Positions 3,509 through 44,909 of a stretch of DNA of 64,000 nt are shown piece by piece. The notes below the pieces were generated by a model. It was given only the letters and a program-made list of their open reading frames with translations, had not been told where the DNA came from and did not search any database. Both the position numbers and the translations under genes were made by a program. Each line of letters starts with the position of its first letter. Within the stretch, counting starts at the first letter, position 1. Location of the stretch: NCBI GenBank assembly GCA_963751455.1, contig CAVVUN010000002.1, positions 611,505 to 675,504 on the forward strand, in the 5' to 3' direction. The stretch is from Nitrospirota bacterium (GTDB lineage: Bacteria; Nitrospirota; UBA9217).

Positions 3509-3673
3509 CCTAAAAACGGCATTTGAACACGGATGAACACGGAAACAGCGGATCAAAACAATGTGATAGAGCAAAAAGCCATCTCGCCTTTTGGGTGAAT
3601 CCATTACTGTTCGTAACTTCCCTATAAATCCGTGTTGATCAGATTTTATCCGTGTCCAACTGCTTTTTTCAGG
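3509..3673. mobile_element. MITE with CCT...AGG ends, copy 1, enclosing a 10-mer repeat palindrome
   Basis: Ends CCTAAAAA / TTTTCAGG; 5-bp direct repeat TTCAG on both sides; inner arms AACACGGATG / ATCCGTGT. Confidence 0.75.
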
Positions 3674-13912: not shown

Positions 13913-13916
13913 CTAG

Positions 13917-18141: not shown

Positions 18142-18420
18142 GCAATGCCTCGCAGTGAAGGTATATCATTAATGATAGCACGAGCGGATTTAGTCAGTTA
18201 CAAGTCAAATTCTTCTCAAAATGGGGAGAATATTTACCGCGAAGGCGCGAAGAACGCGAAGGACATCAAAACAAAGAGGATTTTGTTTTAATTCAAGACT
18301 TGCAAGGTTTTCTTCGCGACCTTCGCGCCTGGTTTATTGCTGTCAAGTATTTTTATTCTTTTTTATGTTTTATCTTTCTTCAAGCTTTGGCTTAAAAGAA
18401 TGACTTCGATCTTAGGTGCG

Positions 18421-18573
18421 GCACCTCGCCCAATCCTGGTATTAGAGGGTCTCGACAGAGCCCAAACCTTGCTTTATTGGGACTAAGGTGCAAGCGGGGA
18501 GTTATGTAAGCTTTGCGAGAAGGTCGGCATAGCCGCCTTAGATGGCGCGAACGATAATCTCCCCCGCCTGCAC
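18421..18573 (-). ncRNA. Putative IS110 bridge RNA (target-binding loop, then donor-binding loop)
   Basis: Two stem/internal-loop/hairpin units. Loop segments TTCGCGCC and TCGCAAAG match the target; AAAGCAAG and AATACCAG match the circle junction. Confidence 0.8.
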
Positions 18574-18588
18574 GCTAAAACATTTGAG

Positions 18589-19848
18589 TTACGCAGCCTC
18601 GAGCTGAAACGATTTTTTTATGTAATCTTCTTCGTAAACGCTATGATCACGTACGACGGCAAATATGATTCCGAGAAGCTTCCGCGCGACAGCGATCAGC
18701 GCTTTGGTCTTGATCATTCCACGATCGAGATACCGCCGATACTGTTGGTGCATTACGCCGTCTTTGCGAACGGTATTGAGCGCGGCAAAGTACAGAAGTT
18801 TCCGGAGCAGCGGCCGGCCTCGCTTGGAAATGCGGCGCGTCCCTCTATGCTTGCCCGAGCTGATCTCAAAGAGGTCAAAACCGGCGAGCTTCATGATCTC
18901 CCCGAGGGTGCTGAACTTTCGGAAATCGCCCACTTCGCCGATGAGACCGGCAGCGGTGACCTCGCCGATCCCTTTGAACGAAAGAATCGAGTTGCTGTAG
19001 GGAATCTGCTGAAGTTGAAGAACCATCTCCGCTTCCAGTTCGGAGTTAAATTGCTCAGAGACCTCCATAGCGGCAAGAATCGCTCGGATCTCTCGGAGGA
19101 TGCTGGCTTGGCCTTCGGTTACGCCTACGGACGATTCTGCGGCCTCGTAGAGCGCTTGGGCTCGGTCTGCTCCAAGCTTGCCCCGGCTCACCTTTCTGAT
19201 CGTCTGGGTGAGCTTGTCAACGCATTGCGCCGCAATCTCCTTTGGTGTCGGGCAGTGTTTCAAAAGATGTTTCGCAGTTGCCGTCTTTACATCTTTCATT
19301 ACCTGCTTAAACTCTGGAAAAATGATCGCGATCAAGCCCTGAAGCTGATTCACCAATGCCGTGTGACGCTGGGTGCTCCTCTCTCTGGCCTGGGTCAGCC
19401 TCCGAAGCTCGGCGGCGGGACCTTCCGGGATCACCACGCTCAGGGCATGTCCAAGCTCTATGATGTCGGCAATGACCTTGGGGTCTTTCTGGTCCGTCTT
19501 GTTCGGAGAATTGCCCTGGAGCTCTTTAACTCTCTTGGTGTGCATGGGATTTACCTGTACAAGTCGCACGTCTCGCGCCCGCATGAAATGCACCAGAGCC
19601 TCGGCGTACGACCCGGTGGATTCGTATCCAAAGACAATTTCGTCGAGATTATGGATTTCCTTCGCCCGGGATATCCGCTGCCAGAATTCGTGGAAACCCG
19701 ACCCGTTGTTCGAGAAAGGAAAACTCTTCACGTCGGTTCCATCCGGACAGCGCCAGTACCCGTAATGTTTGTCTTTGCCCATATCAGCGGTCACGATAAG
19801 AGATTTTCCATTGACTACTCTAAACTTTTTTGTTTTAATCTTCTTCAA
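18589..19848 (-). CDS. IS110 DEDD recombinase/transposase
   Basis: TTG start with GAGG RBS; D(MGK), ESTG, KTDQKD, GIGEVTAAGLIGE, SSGK...ISKRG...LR, AVARKL. Confidence 0.95.
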   Translation of the reverse strand: MKKIKTKKFRVVNGKSLIVTADMGKDKHYGYWRCPDGTDVKSFPFSNNGSGFHEFWQRISRAKEIHNLDEIVFGYESTGSYAEALVHFMRARDVRLVQVNPMHTKRVKELQGNSPNKTDQKDPKVIADIIELGHALSVVIPEGPAAELRRLTQARERSTQRHTALVNQLQGLIAIIFPEFKQVMKDVKTATAKHLLKHCPTPKEIAAQCVDKLTQTIRKVSRGKLGADRAQALYEAAESSVGVTEGQASILREIRAILAAMEVSEQFNSELEAEMVLQLQQIPYSNSILSFKGIGEVTAAGLIGEVGDFRKFSTLGEIMKLAGFDLFEISSGKHRGTRRISKRGRPLLRKLLYFAALNTVRKDGVMHQQYRRYLDRGMIKTKALIAVARKLLGIIFAVVRDHSVYEEDYIKKSFQLEAA

Positions 19849-20056
19849 GGCTATACCTCTTTCTTCGGTTTGGATTACCAACTTGCCAGCTGGTTTCAAA
19901 TCGAGAAAGAGTATAGCCTTTTTTAAGTAAGGCTCAATTGCTTTCTGCAATATAGCAAGCTTCGCGGTTCCAAGGTTTTAGTTCCGGATTTCCCGGGTTA
20001 GGATCAGAAGCGCTTCTTAATCCCCGCAAAAGAGTCTTTGCCGCATGCTATTTGGA

Positions 20057-31920: not shown

Positions 31921-32206
31921 ACGGGGCCCTTGTTATTTGGGATCAGCGCAGCCAAAAAGCGTTGCATATTGGTTTTGCATAATAATCATTGCTTGTGCTT
32001 GTTTTTGCACAAAACCGCCTCATTATATCATAAAAATGAAAGATTGTGTCCAGCTTTATTTGTTTAATTTTTGGGAATGAGGGTGTCATTCGAAGAGATT
32101 TTTTTGCGACGCGGCAATATCTATTTTTTACCAGGTAGCCGCATCCTTTAAAAACCTTTACTTCGCATTATCTTTAAATTTGAGTTTTTGAGAAGCTAAA
32201 AAGCAT

Positions 32207-32437
32207 TTACCGCGAAGGCGCGAGGAGCGCGAAGGAAACCATACGACAAAATCTTATTTCTGGTTTAAACCAGTTTCAATTCCTGCTTTCCTCGCGTCCT
32301 TCGCGCCTTCGCGGTTCCAAGGTATTTTTTCATCGGTCTGAGGCCTTGCCTCGTTAAAGATTTTCTTACGCTTCTTTGCGGCTTTGCGCGAGACGCCTTG
32401 GCTTTGATCTTTTGGTTCCGGTTTGTCCGCGTTAGGG
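32207..32437. repeat. Empty 9-mer palindromic element plus adjacent repeat arm
   Basis: TTACCGCGAAGGCGCGAGGAGCGCGAAGG ... CCTCGCGTCCTTCGCGCCTTCGCGGTTCC; ends GGTTCCGGTTTGTCCGCGTTAGG. Confidence 0.85.
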
Positions 32438-33882: not shown

Positions 33883-35400
33883 CCTTAACGTTGCATAAAA
33901 AATCGCTATGCGGCCCGTTGCAATCGGTCGAGATAATGCAACAACCCCTTTTTGACTCGTGGATTGGCGTTCATTGTCAGAGTTAGCTTGCCGCCGGGCT
34001 GTGTCAGGCGGCCGGCACGCTGTATAAGTGTTCTTCGCAGGGTATTGGGCTCCGTGAACTCCCAAAGAGCGGCCCGTTTTTCGGTGGTGCCCCGGTCGGG
34101 TTCATGCGCGACCATGTGAAGTTCCTTCAGGAGATTGTGCGAGATGATCGCCGACATCATGTATAGCTGATTTCCGTGCAATCTTCTCACAGCCACGTAA
34201 TCCATATTGCACTGGGACTTTAGCTCTCCAAGGATGTTTTCCTGAGAACCGCGGCCCTGATGGAAGTTCAGGACTTTCTTCACCGTCGTTGTTTTGTTTG
34301 TAACGATCACCTTGAAGTCAAACCCGTATTCGTGCGGCGTGAACATATCAAGCTGCACCGGCTCTTTTGACTGCTTTTTGGCTTTTTGACGAATAAAAAG
34401 AAAGCGGAACCGGCTGTCCCAGCTTTTCGGCTTCCAGGGTGTGTCGAAATAGGAAACAACGGAATCGTAACGCCTCCAGCGTTTTTTGGCTTCGATCATG
34501 TGCTTGAGTTCGGAGAACCGCTCAAAGGGGACCGAGATGGTGAACTCAATTCCGTCGCGCTCCAGCGCGCCGACGATTTCATCGCTGAAGAAAGCGCTGT
34601 CCATGCGCACTTCGATGACGATATCCGAACAGGTTGCACGCACCTGTTCGATGCACGCAAGGATGAACGCCCGGGCGCCGTTGGAATCATGTACGTTACC
34701 CGAACGGGGCAGGACGTCAAGGACCATGCCCAACTGAGCGATCATGCAGAAAAGCGGATAATAGCTTCTCTGCCCTTTTTTCTTTTTGTTGAAGCCTACG
34801 GCGGCACCCTCAGCCCATCGGGAGGTCGAGAGCACAGAGCCGTCGAAATCAAGCGTCACGCGACGAAGCTTCAAACCCTGTATGCGGGAGAGCGACATTT
34901 CCCGGCAGAACCGACGAAGATTCAAAATGTCCTTTGCGTCGACCGTCATCAATGCCCGGCTGATCGTGGAAACGTCCGGCATTTTTCGGAGGCCCAGAAG
35001 ACGAAGCGCCATAAGGTCGTCCTGATAGTATTCGATGTCGCGGAGTTTCCGATAACCCAGCATCAGATGCACGATCAGCACGAGCGTAATGACGTGATTG
35101 CCGAAGATGGCGCTCGACGGTAGATGATCAAAGCAGCTTTTCAAGCGGGCTTTCAGATTCAGCTTCGTGAAGAATGCCTGAATGATAGCAAGGCCCGCGT
35201 AGGAAGTGAGCTGTTGATCCTCGAACTTCAGTTCCGGTATTTTGTGAACGCGGCTTAGAACCTGTGCTTTACTGGACTTCACTTTCAGTGGCCTCCTGCT
35301 TGAGTGAAATAATGATATCGCAGGAGCACTATATCCAATAATGAAGCCTGTTTCCAGAGGTTTCTGCATATTTTCAAGAAATGTTTATGCAACTACAAGG
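33883..35400 (-). mobile_element. IS1380-family insertion sequence
   Basis: TIR CCTTAACGTTGCATAAA / CCTTGTAGTTGCATAAA (14 of 17 match); TTTA duplicated on both sides. Confidence 0.92.
33906..35282 (-). CDS. IS1380 DDE transposase
   Basis: GTG start after AGGAGG; LTSYAGL, LDFDGS, YYPL, R.GN.H, RMDSAF, RG..EN...ELK. Confidence 0.92.
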   Translation of the reverse strand: MKSSKAQVLSRVHKIPELKFEDQQLTSYAGLAIIQAFFTKLNLKARLKSCFDHLPSSAIFGNHVITLVLIVHLMLGYRKLRDIEYYQDDLMALRLLGLRKMPDVSTISRALMTVDAKDILNLRRFCREMSLSRIQGLKLRRVTLDFDGSVLSTSRWAEGAAVGFNKKKKGQRSYYPLFCMIAQLGMVLDVLPRSGNVHDSNGARAFILACIEQVRATCSDIVIEVRMDSAFFSDEIVGALERDGIEFTISVPFERFSELKHMIEAKKRWRRYDSVVSYFDTPWKPKSWDSRFRFLFIRQKAKKQSKEPVQLDMFTPHEYGFDFKVIVTNKTTTVKKVLNFHQGRGSQENILGELKSQCNMDYVAVRRLHGNQLYMMSAIISHNLLKELHMVAHEPDRGTTEKRAALWEFTEPNTLRRTLIQRAGRLTQPGGKLTLTMNANPRVKKGLLHYLDRLQRAA

Positions 35401-40627: not shown

Positions 40628-40704
40628 ACAGGTATATAGATTCATCTACCTGTATATGGCGACCTTATATATACAGGTATATGCTTTTCCGGTTGAGCAA
40701 AACG

Positions 40705-41052
40705 TCATGATCCATCTACATATATATGCTTTTCGAGAGGTGTACCGGCGATATTGCCATACCTTACAAACCAGAGTCTCTTCTCCGGATTCCACCTTCC
40801 GCCTGCTGTTTTAGCCTGGAACCGCATCGGCATGTCTGAAGCATTGATGTGGAGAGGAACAAGGGCGTCCGCAGCGTATTGCGGCGAAGACGGTGTCCAG
40901 TCGGTCCTCTCGACAACCAACTCGATTGTTTTCAGCCGCTGCCGGAATTTCGCATCATACCTGAAACGAACGCAGAGCAGGGCATCACCGTACTTTTTCG
41001 CCAGGCCTTTAGTGCCCGGCTGCCCCGGTTTGAGAATCAGCCGCGTTTTCAC
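40705..41052 (-). CDS. Small basic hypothetical protein upstream of attI
   Basis: GGAGG RBS with GTG start; LKPGQPGTK.L...YGD.L.CVR.RYD...R.KT.ELVV and GGRWNPEKRLW. Confidence 0.8.
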   Translation of the reverse strand: MKTRLILKPGQPGTKGLAKKYGDALLCVRFRYDAKFRQRLKTIELVVERTDWTPSSPQYAADALVPLHINASDMPMRFQAKTAGGRWNPEKRLWFVRYGNIAGTPLEKHIYVDGS

Positions 41053-41093
41053 TCAACCTCCGTAAAAAATGGTACTCGGTTCGGCCACGACTA

Positions 41094-41930
41094 CTATACA
41101 GAACAGACTTCAAATAATCTCGCTGTTCTCTCAGCTTTACCGCTTGTTTCTGATTCGCATGTGACGGTTCCTTTTTTAATGTGATACTCAATCTTACGAG
41201 AAACGCAAAAATCCATGACCTGCCGGCTCAGTTCGTTATAGAAGGATTTATATTCCGGATATTTTGTGACCATCGCATTGTAGTTCAATCTTCCGAAAAT
41301 AATCTTGTCAACGAACGAGACAATTTTCAAAATATCGTAAAAATTCTGGCTCACTATGTTCGGCGTAGGGTAGGGCTCAATACTTACCCATGTTTTGATG
41401 CCCTTTTTGTGCAACTTATAGAGGCTGTCGATACGGTCCTCATATCGCGCTGATCCTGGCTCGTATTTTTTTCTGAAATCTTCATTAAGTGAAACCAATG
41501 TGATTCCGAATTCGTTTTTCTTGCTTAAGGATGTGAGGTCCAACGGCAGCGTCCCTTTTGTCAACGCAGTACATCTGATATCCGCATCATTAAGCATTGT
41601 TATGAGCTGGACGCTTAAGTCCGATATTTCCTGGTAACCGTGCATAAACGGATCGGTGCTGAAGCATAAATGCACGAACTTTATCTTGTCCCTGGTTTTA
41701 GGAATTTCCTTTCTGAGCAAATCCACGGCGTTGCCGACTATCTTTGGCTCGATCCATTCTTCATAGCTTTTCACTCTGCCGAACCTTTTGGCCATCATCA
41801 TGGCGTAACATGGGTACAAGCAACCATGAGAACAGCCTTCCACGTGGTTGATGGTATAGTCTCCATATTCAACAGCGGTTTTATAAAGAAGCGATTTCCG
41901 GGTTATAGTGGCGGCGCACCTGTTTCGCAT
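41094..41930 (-). CDS. SplB/COG1533-like radical SAM protein
   Basis: INHVEGCSHGCLYPCYA, FSTDPF, LTKG, EPG....R...L..L...GI.TWVSIEP. Confidence 0.85.
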   Translation of the reverse strand: MRNRCAATITRKSLLYKTAVEYGDYTINHVEGCSHGCLYPCYAMMMAKRFGRVKSYEEWIEPKIVGNAVDLLRKEIPKTRDKIKFVHLCFSTDPFMHGYQEISDLSVQLITMLNDADIRCTALTKGTLPLDLTSLSKKNEFGITLVSLNEDFRKKYEPGSARYEDRIDSLYKLHKKGIKTWVSIEPYPTPNIVSQNFYDILKIVSFVDKIIFGRLNYNAMVTKYPEYKSFYNELSRQVMDFCVSRKIEYHIKKGTVTCESETSGKAERTARLFEVCSV

Positions 41931-41945
41931 ACCTAAATCTTTCTC

Positions 41946-42131
41946 CTAACCCGGACAAGCCGGAACCAAAACCGTTGAACCGCCAGGGCGCAATGGTCGC
42001 TAGGAAGGCGCTCAAACCAAATACTGGATTTTTAATATCAAAAACGTTTTCCGGTTTCCTCGCGTCCCTCGCGTCTTCGCGGTAAATATTTTGTTGCCTT
42101 TTAGAGAAGATTTTCACTCGTAACTGAGTAA
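41946..42131. repeat. Empty 9-mer palindromic element
   Basis: CTAACCCGGACAAGCCGGAACC...AACCGCCAGGGCGCAATGG...CCTCGCGTCTTCGCGGTAAATATT...GTAACTGAGTAA. Confidence 0.85.
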
Positions 42132-42475
42132 TTTTGTATTTGCCAGTGCTTGCCTTTTTGCACAACAACATATGCAGCTTCAATGATCTTCCGGAAATTC
42201 TCCTTTGTTCCCGCCCAGTCGACGAGGTCCACCTTGAACGGCAAATCGGATTCGGTGAACGCTTCTTTGAGTTCCATCAATATCGAAGCAGGCACAGGCT
42301 CGCTTCCGATTATCGCCAGGTCCAGGTCGGAGAACGGCTTGACTTTCCCGGTCACCCGGGAGCCAAAGGCCCACACCTCCCGGTCGGGGATGTGGCGGCG
42401 CAGGATGTCCTGCACGGTTTTGAGATCTGCGGGGGCTATCAATGCATTGCGCAAGGATGAGACGTCAAGCGTCAT
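42101..42475 (-). CDS. Minimal nucleotidyltransferase (MNT antitoxin type)
   Basis: VWAFGSRVTG....SDLDLAI, SDLPFKVDLVD. The C-terminus reads into the repeat element. Confidence 0.88.
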   Translation of the reverse strand: MTLDVSSLRNALIAPADLKTVQDILRRHIPDREVWAFGSRVTGKVKPFSDLDLAIIGSEPVPASILMELKEAFTESDLPFKVDLVDWAGTKENFRKIIEAAYVVVQKGKHWQIQNYSVTSENLL

Positions 42476-42597
42476 GGTATTCCTCCGTATAGGCGATCAG
42501 CTTATCATCGTTCATTATTTTCCGCAAGATGGAACTTTCCGAATCCTTACCGCGAGGTCGCGAGGGACGCCAGGAAAGCCTTGAGTGCGCAATCACA

Positions 42598-42974
42598 TCA
42601 CAGGTTATTTACCATTCGCTTGATGCCGTCTTCATGCGTGGCACGTGCCAGTTCAATATAAATCCAAGTTTGCAATCCTTCATCTTAAGATAGGTCAGCA
42701 ATTGAGCCTCATGTATCGGGAGAAGCCGTTCCACGGTCTTGTGTTCGACAATTACGCAGTCATCGACGATCATGTCGATTCGGTATCCCGCTTCAATGGA
42801 GACACCTCTGTACAGAATCGGTAGGACCACTTCACACATCACCTGTGAGCCTTCCTGTTTCAGGTCATATTCCATGGATCTCTGATACGCTGATTCGAAC
42901 AAACCCGGTCCCAAGGCGGTGTGCACTCTCATGGCTGCGGCAACGATTTTACCAGCGACTGTTTCAATGTCCAT
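42598..42974 (-). pseudogene. GxxExxY protein (PD-(D/E)XK nuclease fold), one-base frameshift near the C-terminus
   Basis: VHTALGPGLFESAY, YRIDMIV...VEHK, HEAQLLTYLK. The usual DGIKRMVN tail is in the adjacent frame (shift at about 42631). Confidence 0.88.
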
Positions 42975-43060
42975 CGGCCCTGATCCCTTCCGGACTTCCT
43001 CGCGTCCCTCGCGCCTTCGCGGTTCCGAAGTTTTAATCCGGGTGTTTCCCGGGAAGTTAA

Positions 43061-43648
43061 TCATTTGTACTTCCTCACCACCGCCGTCACGACCCCGGCG
43101 ATCTTGAGTTCGTTCTTCGGCTTGATCGGCTTGTACTTCGGGTTCGCCGGCAGGAGCGTGACGCTGTCGCCCCGTTTTCTCAAAAATTTCATGGTCCACT
43201 GGCCGTCCACTTCCGCGATCACGATGTCGCCGCTCTTGGGCGTCTGCCCCTTGTCCACGATCACCATGTCCCCGGGAAGCACACCCGCGCCGGACATGGA
43301 ATCGCCGCTTACTTTGAGAAGGAATGTGGCTTCACGGTTCTGGATCAACAACTCGTCAAGCGAGAGCGTGTCCACGAGCTCTTCTTCGGCCGGGCTCGGA
43401 AATCCGGCCTCCACCGTGCCCAGGACCCGCACAGCAGAGCTGATCGAGCCGGGGATAAGCCTGCCTTTCGTGTCTTTTTTGAGGACCTTGAGCTCTTCGA
43501 GCCTCTGTACCAGTTTGAAGACTGCGTTCTTGGAGCGGAGTCCCGTCATCTCAGCAATCTCGGAAAAGCTGGGCATTCTCCCGTTTTTATTGTAAAACCG
43601 GGCAATGGCCCTGGAGCGCATTGTGTCGTCGGAAAGTGTTCGTGCCAT
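43061..43648 (-). CDS. lexA: LexA-family repressor (HTH plus S24 peptidase)
   Basis: MPSFSEIAEM.GL.SK HTH, V.AGFPSPA cleavage site, VSGDSM (Ser), TMK (Lys), PANPKY. Confidence 0.92.
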   Translation of the reverse strand: MARTLSDDTMRSRAIARFYNKNGRMPSFSEIAEMTGLRSKNAVFKLVQRLEELKVLKKDTKGRLIPGSISSAVRVLGTVEAGFPSPAEEELVDTLSLDELLIQNREATFLLKVSGDSMSGAGVLPGDMVIVDKGQTPKSGDIVIAEVDGQWTMKFLRKRGDSVTLLPANPKYKPIKPKNELKIAGVVTAVVRKYK

Positions 43649-43655
43649 GGTTGGT

Positions 43656-43684
43656 ATTATAGGTGAACGTACGTTCACTGTCAA
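43656..43684 (-). promoter_or_regulatory. Consensus sigma70 promoter with a LexA operator in the spacer
   Basis: TTGACA-17-TATAAT. The spacer holds the perfect palindrome GTGAACGTACGTTCAC (GAAC-N4-GTTC). ATG lies 7 nt after the -10. Confidence 0.9.
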
Positions 43685-43797: not shown

Positions 43798-43974
43798 CCT
43801 GAAAACGGCAGTTGGACGCAGATGAACGCAGATTTTCGCAGATAAAACCGGACATTCAGGTGTAAAGTAGCTTCACCACAAGGGTGAGCTTTTTTCAGTT
43901 TCAGAAGTATTTTTTTATCCAGTTTTTATCCGCGTTTATCCGATCTTATCTGCGTCCCAATCGCTCTTTTTAGG
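43798..43974. mobile_element. CCT...AGG MITE, copy 3
   Basis: CCTGAAAACGGCAG...CTTTTTAGG; ATAAT duplicated on both sides. Confidence 0.85.
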
Positions 43975-44604: not shown

Positions 44605-44909
44605 CTAGTACAGCGTAAACTTAATTATTAAAGGTTCAACGCCGTCATTCCGGCGTGCTTTTCGCGGGTCAAACCAGAACCAATCAGATTGAACCGCGAG
44701 GGCGCAAAGGTCGCCAGGAAGGCGATACTTCTCTTACATATTACGGGAATTTCGCTTTCCTCGCGTTCCTCGCGACATCGCGGTAAATATTCTTTGCCGT
44801 TTTGAGATAAATTCTATTTGTAACTGACTACCGGAACCCGACTAATCATGCCGGGTGACGTGCAAGCAGAGGTGCAAAACTATCAAAAAACATTTTTACA
44901 GTGCACTAG
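44605..44909. repeat. Nested repeat block: CTAG-flanked element containing a CGTC-REP pair and a 9-mer palindromic element
   Basis: CTAG-TACAGCGTAAA...TTTACAGTGCA-CTAG; CGTCATTCCGG...CCGGGTGACG; inner element 44664-44830 ends GTAACTGACTA. Confidence 0.65.

Follow-up and report, generated by a model that had tools for sequence, protein, structure and literature searches.

The GxxExxY gene located behind lexA in the window (the whole stretch of 64,000 nt of Nitrospirota DNA analysed here) is enclosed by a pair of inverted arms built from repeated short words, and the resulting arm–gene–arm cassette is likely to be a mobile element not described so far, with an enzyme that recognizes the ends of the element itself.

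The cassette behind lexA

The cassette is 479 bp long (42547..43025, minus strand). Its 5′ arm (42995..43025, minus strand) starts with a GAAC end followed by three CGCGARG-type words at spacings of 8 and 9 nt, and its 3′ arm (42547..42578, plus strand) has a TTAC end and the three-word array inverted. The first-pass annotation of this DNA had already placed the gene between such arms, correctly; the 9 nt periodicity that it ascribed to them is only partly right, the spacing of the words being 8 then 9 nt instead of 9 and 9. Between the arms lies a gene of the GxxExxY/PDDEXK_3 nuclease fold (42598..42974, minus strand), which matches TIGR04256 (E = 5e-37; 126.8 bits for a curated cut-off of 35) and PF13366 (E = 7e-34; 117 bits for a curated cut-off of 22). 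Its catalytic-type residues are intact, and a frameshift of 1 nt is found near position 42630, about ten codons before the end of the gene. A public contig of 228 nt with approximately 99% identity has one more base at this position; the frameshift is therefore either a lesion of the strain or an assembly error.

The cassette lies downstream of the stop codon of a lexA-like gene (43061..43648, minus strand), on the same strand. The leader that separates this stop codon from the 5′ arm (43026..43060, minus strand) is a degenerate copy of a CCGG-hairpin shell end and is missing from the orthologous cassette L040. Immediately upstream of lexA, the palindrome GTGAAC-N4-GTTCAC (43663..43678) resembles GAAC-N4-GTTC, which we take to be the LexA box. 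Behind the cassette, a promoter-like motif, TTGCGG-17-TAAGCT (42499..42527, minus strand; read as a promoter by eye), has similar sequences in most lexA loci, whether or not they hold a GxxExxY gene, and thus marks the far side of the slot. A remnant of a toxin gene was also considered for the sequence that follows the 3′ arm, but the promoter-like motif was preferred.

Arms around GxxExxY genes in general

We gathered GxxExxY genes by their protein alone and scored their flanks for inverted repeats (threshold 14). In a sample that leans towards the window's family plus one other phylum, arms flank 98 of 111 distinct near-full-length genes from the genome samples (four having been dropped for short flanks; one unpublished genome was excluded throughout) and, in the metagenome set, 48 of 64 genes (from 80 loci, with 13 dropped for short flanks and three for coverage or duplication). 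Detectable arms are thus missing at 13 and 16 genes, respectively. Among the controls, arms are found around three of 300 long ORFs of the window's genome and in 78 of 1289 mismatched flank pairs. GxxExxY genes are therefore generally enclosed, as the first-pass annotation had supposed.

The word common to these arms is CRCNRAK. Across the family, the spacer between words measures 1, 2 or 3 nt (48, 48 and 14 of 110, respectively), and the first spacer has the same length in both arms in 108 of 110 cassettes. Cassette and upstream gene share a strand in 76 of 98 cases according to crude ORF calls (13 opposite and nine uncalled), with a median of 12.5 nt between that gene and the arm. Flanking direct repeats of at least 5 nt are present at 27 of 130 cassettes, compared with 22% in controls: there is no excess, and no target duplication. 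At L200 and L211, each side of the gene has arms joined head to head, which gives the appearance of arm units in tandem arrays. At one GxxExxY gene of the window's genome (contig C15, position 1702995) the arms are built from a word very unlike the others (GGAGAAAT-like), and an archaeal record (L103) has inverted flanks without periodicity.

The GxxExxY protein

PF13366 is a very large family, as indicated by the 7997 of 8000 scored candidates that passed; its function is given as ‘Unknown’ in a passage of PMC3424549. Close homologues of the window's protein mostly have 125 residues. In the alignment E25, D65, E75, K77, Q89, Y93 and R118 are nearly invariant, and there are no conserved Fe–S cysteines. 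Profile searches returned only the PF13366 and TIGR04256 matches for the protein, with no HUH motif, and no DDE transposase in the cassette. The PDB sequence search gave a single irrelevant match and the ESM Atlas search no usable one. A structure model built from 108 aligned sequences reached a pLDDT of 97 (the single-sequence model, with a pLDDT of 37, was unusable). The best Foldseek rows are Cas4 (PDB entries 4r5q, E = 0.0035, and 4ic1), LHK-exonuclease, lambda exonuclease and Hjc, none of them at an E value of 0.001 or better. The modelled fold is Cas4/lambda-exonuclease-like and a nuclease function is predicted, with a QxxxY motif of the RecB/Cas4 type that presumably points to DNA as the substrate. 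A PD-(D/E)XK-type fold such as this one cuts strands and has no known strand-transfer activity, so that any movement caused by the nuclease would need host repair. dN/dS amounts to 0.03–0.09 in eight of nine unsaturated pairs and to 0.24 in the ninth (nine further pairs being saturated), which shows that, as judged from substitution patterns, the gene is under purifying selection.

Arm words and the C-terminal tail

The arm word tracks the protein clade, a co-variation that had been proposed as a check on the link between gene and repeat. On a quick tree the word class changes 48 times, compared with a shuffled mean of 78.6, and none of 200 shuffles was as low. T-ending words are confined to one side of the deepest split, and most G-ending words are located on the other side. 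The C-terminal tail also differs between word classes in the 93 of 175 genes that could be used (52 were without a callable arm and 30 without a callable tail): cassettes with CGC words have a long tail in 37 of 37 cases (at least five residues after the conserved arginine), and those with CAC words a short one (fewer than five residues) in 47 of 56. On a weakly resolved tree built without the tail residues, independent pairs drawn on all branches (our own pairing; modal outcome of 200 runs) gave 14 pairs in the same direction, none in the opposite direction and six without a difference; restricted to starred branches, about five were in the same direction and none opposite (p = 0.06). This co-variation suggests that the protein reads the word directly. 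Recombination with later homogenization of the arms could mimic such co-evolution, because the tail and the 3′ arm are neighbours.

The unit at other loci and turnover of sites

Cassettes of the window's clade are located behind lexA, fchA, purH, an exopolysaccharide export gene and lpd. Compared with four cassettes of this clade at other loci (L195, L196, L275 and L277), the DNA identity of the window's cassette is 69–74% from arm end to arm end. The similarity sets in and breaks off no more than about 3 nt away from the ends of the arms, so that the recurring unit is 42547–43025. Of the gene-carrying element put forward by the first-pass annotation, what stands is this arm–gene–arm unit, present at unrelated loci with homology ending at the arms.

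We compared 18 loci with a lexA 3′ end (20 were fetched and two were unusable), eight of which hold a GxxExxY gene. The filled loci carry three clades, with CGCGARG, CACRAAG or CGCAAAG arms, and at two of them a former arm, made of a different word, persists outside the present one. Two unfilled loci have orphan arms, and the remaining unfilled ones are without arms. The purH junction holds a cassette in one genome (G020), a decayed hairpin in a second genome of the same genus (G004) and no arms in three others. At the patatin–ubiA and gspL-like junctions filled, hairpin-only, orphan-arm and bare alleles are all seen, and same-clade cassettes persist across genera at the gspL-like and ubiA junctions. 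The search for filled versus empty orthologous sites that had been advised at the outset thus yielded filled, hairpin-only and empty alleles of the same junction. At two loci (L146 and L169) the final codons of the gene are still present next to an arm, which marks some hairpins as products of deletion. It may be that every hairpin-only allele arose by deletion and that none has served as a target. Recent gene-bearing duplicates are absent, the highest protein identity within a genome being 65% (136 pairs). As far as these comparisons tell, the cassette moves, but rarely, since it changes locus and yet no copies above 65% identity are found within a genome.

Gene-less hairpins and their shells

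The arm pattern has 116 matches in the window's genome and none in a reversed control. With one mismatch allowed, there are 51 arm pairs in this genome, of which 48 are short (80–120 bp) and gene-less, with fillers of about 41 nt (median, for the cut chosen) and 38% GC. The TTAC/GAAC asymmetry described earlier is real, the GAAC end being on one side only in 48 of the 51 pairs, and the four gene-less copies reported for the window are all present. The right arm of the one at 18234..19969 (plus strand) is split by an IS110-family element. The second (32207–32317) lies within a unit of about 205 bp flanked by TTAA (32152..32353, plus strand), the third (41977–42085) within a non-inverted shell without target duplication (41945..42130, plus strand) and the fourth (44691–44786) within a 297 bp MITE-like shell with CTAG on both sides (44609..44905, plus strand).

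Five near-identical subfamilies, which share sequence past the arms, account for 33 of the 48 gene-less copies, and two of these subfamilies have 4 bp duplications. Shells of the type found around the 44690 hairpin measure 260–298 bp, and 11 of the 12 complete copies are flanked by CTAG left and right; the unit of about 205 bp around the 32207 hairpin has TTAA on the left in seven of seven copies and on the right in six of seven. The non-inverted outer ends noted in the first-pass annotation belong to a separate shell and not to the arm unit; this shell is also found around hairpins built from other words, and with no hairpin at all. Among relatives, the hairpins that it encloses are made of four other words, and at L282 it is seen with the arm-to-arm unit cleanly absent. 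One shell position can hold different hairpins or none, and hairpins therefore also come and go independently. The recent multiplication of gene-less hairpins in this genome is likely to reflect capture in shells moved by other transposases; its attribution to the GxxExxY protein is not supported, as the multiplied copies lie in larger shells, two of them with 4 bp duplications. Because IS-derived shells amplify repeats, the abundance of gene-less repeats is not evidence of nuclease activity, and tests of the GxxExxY system need caution over shell-amplified repeats.

The fillers of this family have no similarity to the inside of filled cassettes (23.1, compared with 21.7 when shuffled), and no remnants of same-clade cassettes were found among them. 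An enrichment in IHF sites was rejected (2 of 20 fillers, compared with 1.3 in shuffles). A TTTAAA-type core is present in 10 of 20 distinct fillers of the window's genome, compared with 2.3 in shuffles (maximum 7). A search for an ISAzo13 transposase as the partner of the GTAAC-ended shell gave no match, as did its control, and the shell end has no exact match in viral contigs.

The co-occurrence of repeats and genes was followed across 41 genomes, several to many of whose assemblies are fragmented. Of the 21 genomes that have a GxxExxY hit, 19 contain at least seven matches to the CACRGAG arm, as do two of the 20 genomes without one; for the window-family arm a same-clade gene is found in five of eight genomes with at least 20 matches and in one of 33 with fewer; in both comparisons kin are not independent. 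The association expected from the first-pass annotation appears strong but is not strict, and repeats are also abundant where the cognate gene was not found: the window's genome has 62 CACRGAG arms and no gene with a CACRGAG word was found in it, and two genomes (G015, with 28 matches, and G038, with 32) have arm repeats and no GxxExxY hit.

The IS110-family element (1629 bp, 18331..19959, minus strand; transposase 18589–19950, NF033542), with its CT core repeated, is present as a single copy in the genome and splits the right arm of the gene-less hairpin at 18234. Parasitism by an IS110 had been proposed for the gene-carrying element; an IS110 does sit in an arm, but in that of a gene-less copy and not of the gene-bearing one. 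In the 3′ non-coding region of this element (18331–18590), two 8 nt matches to the invaded arm lie in the loop of a predicted stem. They are possibly a target guide; being near chance level, they are not counted as evidence.

A sister hairpin with the word CGCAGAT lies in an IS1380-type MITE with the 5 bp duplication ATAAT (43798..43974, plus strand; further copies at 3509, 28367 and 57584). The sister family comprises 85 complete MITE copies (two nested pairs being counted twice), 78 of which have a 5 bp duplication with at most one mismatch, and eight additional left ends without a right end found. Their ends match those of a 1624 bp IS1380-like element, which is present in four copies in the same genome and whose protein is over the PF13701 cut-off and under that of NF033539. 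The sister hairpin family is an IS1380-type MITE. The IS1380 family has CC ends and makes a 5 bp duplication. IS1380 elements with their MITE and TMo derivatives, as characterized in parts of PMC9330008, account for the sister hairpins with their matching ends and 5 bp duplications; the gene-bearing cassette differs in having no DDE transposase, CC ends or duplication. One of ten near-identical 1.5 kb copies of another IS1380-family element, with ends unlike those that bound the hairpin MITEs, lies at about 33900–35400.

A CGCAGAT hairpin is also enclosed by a third kind of MITE-like shell, about 168 bp long and with GTAACTAYTCAG inverted ends, of which the window's genome has 30 copies (for example at position 641151 of contig C2, about 29650 in the window). 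In most of the copies inspected, a 4 bp duplication appears, displaced by two variable bases to the left and to the right; the search for a partner transposase gave no match. An element of about 45 bp ending in GCAGGGYA is inserted into arms in a number of hairpins of this genome (among them C9:64512, C12:654939, C15:1127559 and C15:1289690), and a similar one in an arm of L033. A 224 bp repeat with inverted ends, CTAG flanks and a GTAG-type REP-like palindrome inside is present at 13915, 44906 and 48833, and its copy at 44906 abuts the shell of the 44690 hairpin.

Possible mechanism and alternative explanations

The account to which we give about even chances is that of a slow selfish cassette, whose Cas4-like nuclease would bind the arm words and cut, and which host repair would copy into arm-pair junctions. 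The cassette would be expressed by read-through from the host operon, here that of lexA, and hence possibly under SOS control. The protein would recognize the arm word, with its C-terminal tail reading the second base, and its substrate would be DNA, either duplex or cruciform, instead of an RNA stem, with cuts made at or near the arms. Host repair would then copy the cassette into junctions that already carry an arm pair. Gene-less hairpins would be in part deletion products (as at two other sites) and would also serve as landing sites, with IS-derived shells spreading hairpins as a second layer. We extend this more tentatively, at somewhat below even chances, to GxxExxY cassettes as a whole: they may be a widespread mobile class without a transposase or recombinase, in which a 125-residue Cas4-like nuclease recognizes a 7-base word specific to its clade, in part by its C-terminal tail, and cuts arm pairs. 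Host repair would copy the cassette into landing pads formed by hairpins downstream of stop codons, the gene-less hairpins being both relics and targets and the IS-derived shells a source of new pads.

The gene could instead have been domesticated in the manner of RAYTs, being retained because it benefits the host (it might, for example, resolve or trim DNA in cruciform or hairpin form, possibly in the course of an SOS response) or only because it sustains the gene-less hairpins in trans, with changes of locus that are rare and passive. We regard this as unlikely, although the strong purifying selection, the persistence of same-clade cassettes at one junction across genera (gspL-like and ubiA), the absence of recent duplicates, the position behind lexA with a LexA-box-like palindrome upstream and the resolvase Hjc among the weak fold matches would all agree with it. 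It is harder to reconcile with one clade occupying at least five unrelated junctions with homology that ends at the arms, with three clades replacing each other at one site, with the 28 of 109 GxxExxY hits in 41 genomes that are partial or broken (some of which may be assembly errors) and with the 20 of these 41 genomes that have no hit. The arms could also be passive, the nuclease being inert on them and everything being moved by unrelated enzymes (IS1380-like, IS4/IS5-like, IS110 and tyrosine transposases) together with recombination between repeats. The filled cassettes argue against this, being without duplication and without IS-like outer ends, with homology that stops at the arms; moreover, the same shell position is found with different hairpins or none, and neither the co-variation of word and tail nor the near-universal link between gene and arms would be accounted for. 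We therefore consider it improbable, even though it describes well the 85 sister hairpins that are complete MITEs (78 with a 5 bp duplication) with ends matching the 1624 bp IS1380-like element, the CTAG on both sides of 11 of 12 shells of the 44690 type and the presence of repeats where the cognate gene was not found.

An action on RNA is the reading that we rate lowest. The arms would pair in the operon transcript with the gene looped out, and the protein or a host RNase would process the stem, as for an intervening sequence. Same-strand insertion just behind stop codons would suit such an element, as would tRNA splicing endonucleases among the weak fold matches and the predicted fold, which pairs the two arms (z = −2.3, with DNA parameters). 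An RNA stem would, however, favour G–U over A–C mismatches, and in the sense strand the arm mismatches comprise 124 G–T and 114 A–C (p = 0.56), which shows no G–U bias and gives no support for an RNA stem. Rfam has no match in 17500–46000, and the RecB/Cas4-type QxxxY motif is taken to point to DNA. The spacers are kept complementary, as an RNA stem would also have them: they are identical between the two arms in 44 of 95 cases, compared with 22 when partners are deranged within a word class (maximum 35 in 3000). This symmetry of the arms beyond the words fits symmetric DNA sites that would be homogenized or extruded as a cruciform.

Comparison with known systems

Free-standing homing endonuclease genes, including those of PD-(D/E)XK type, resemble the cassette in that they encode a lone small nuclease, make no target duplication and decay frequently. 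Filled and unfilled alleles of the same site are found in both systems. However, a GxxExxY clade occupies many junctions and three clades share one, instead of a single conserved site, and the sequence shared between sites consists of the cassette's own arms (about 30 bp), which are kept in the filled allele. A cut-and-copy model must therefore account for how the filled allele avoids being cut by its own enzyme. Like DDE insertion sequences, the cassette is bounded by terminal inverted repeats, but it has neither a DDE transposase nor a target-site duplication. With Cas4, RecB and lambda exonuclease the protein shares the core fold and the E...D...ExK...QxxxY residues; it differs from them in its size (about 125 residues), in having no conserved Fe–S cysteines and no CRISPR context, and in being tied to inverted arms.

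The closest parallels in layout are REPIN–RAYT systems. In the published accounts consulted in part (10.1101/2021.07.10.451892; PMC3116915), a conserved nuclease gene is flanked by repeats that are also dispersed as extragenic inverted doublets of about 100 bp with a variable spacer, a feature that recurs here in the 48 short pairs of 80–120 bp; several gene–repeat families per genome, purifying selection, the absence of recent gene copies and insertion of IS110 into the repeats are also common to both. The GxxExxY protein has a PD-(D/E)XK fold and neither an HUH motif nor a catalytic tyrosine. Its arms consist of a non-palindromic 7-mer in tandem repetition, while a REP is described as a palindrome of about 14 bp in itself, and its gene lies inside a single arm pair and changes locus (at least five junctions), whereas RAYTs are described as staying at one site. 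The RAYT/REPIN analogy drawn by the first-pass annotation is thus apt for the layout, but not for a gene that changes locus or for arms that are word arrays. TIRtrons, or TIRYT elements, likewise have a small nuclease gene within long terminal inverted repeats that also form dispersed families; they encode HUH tyrosine transposases, and neither GxxExxY proteins nor CRCRRAK word arrays appear in the descriptions compared (portions of PMC3733652 and PMC6006769). We found no description of GxxExxY genes with these arms in a literature search of main texts, mostly outside subscription journals; the repeat families listed in the supplementary files of PMC3733652 may bear on this point.

The cognate arms give the PF13366 family a defined candidate substrate and a testable recognition rule, which relates tail length to the second letter of the word. 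Should the enzyme prove to move the cassette, mobility would depend on a lone Cas4-like nuclease together with host repair and would belong to none of the DDE, HUH, serine, tyrosine and IS110 classes, and the enzyme would be a very small sequence-specific nuclease with natural specificity variants.

Surroundings of the lexA junction

An MntA-like nucleotidyltransferase ORF is present at 42101–42475 (minus strand). Its first 12 residues or so match the start of a separate upstream ORF of 139 amino acids in L041, which is presumably a HepT-type partner; the partner gene seems to have been deleted here, leaving a fusion behind. Differing small gene pairs are located behind the conserved promoter-like motif downstream of lexA, both in the window (40700–42530) and in L040–L053, and those of the relatives look, by eye, like toxin–antitoxin modules. 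The region downstream of lexA may be a cassette hot spot. In distant relatives lexA is followed by a gene that we take, from its motif, to be DinB-like. Integrase-like 3′ remnants adjoin three of the same-clade cassettes at other loci (L196, L275 and L277).
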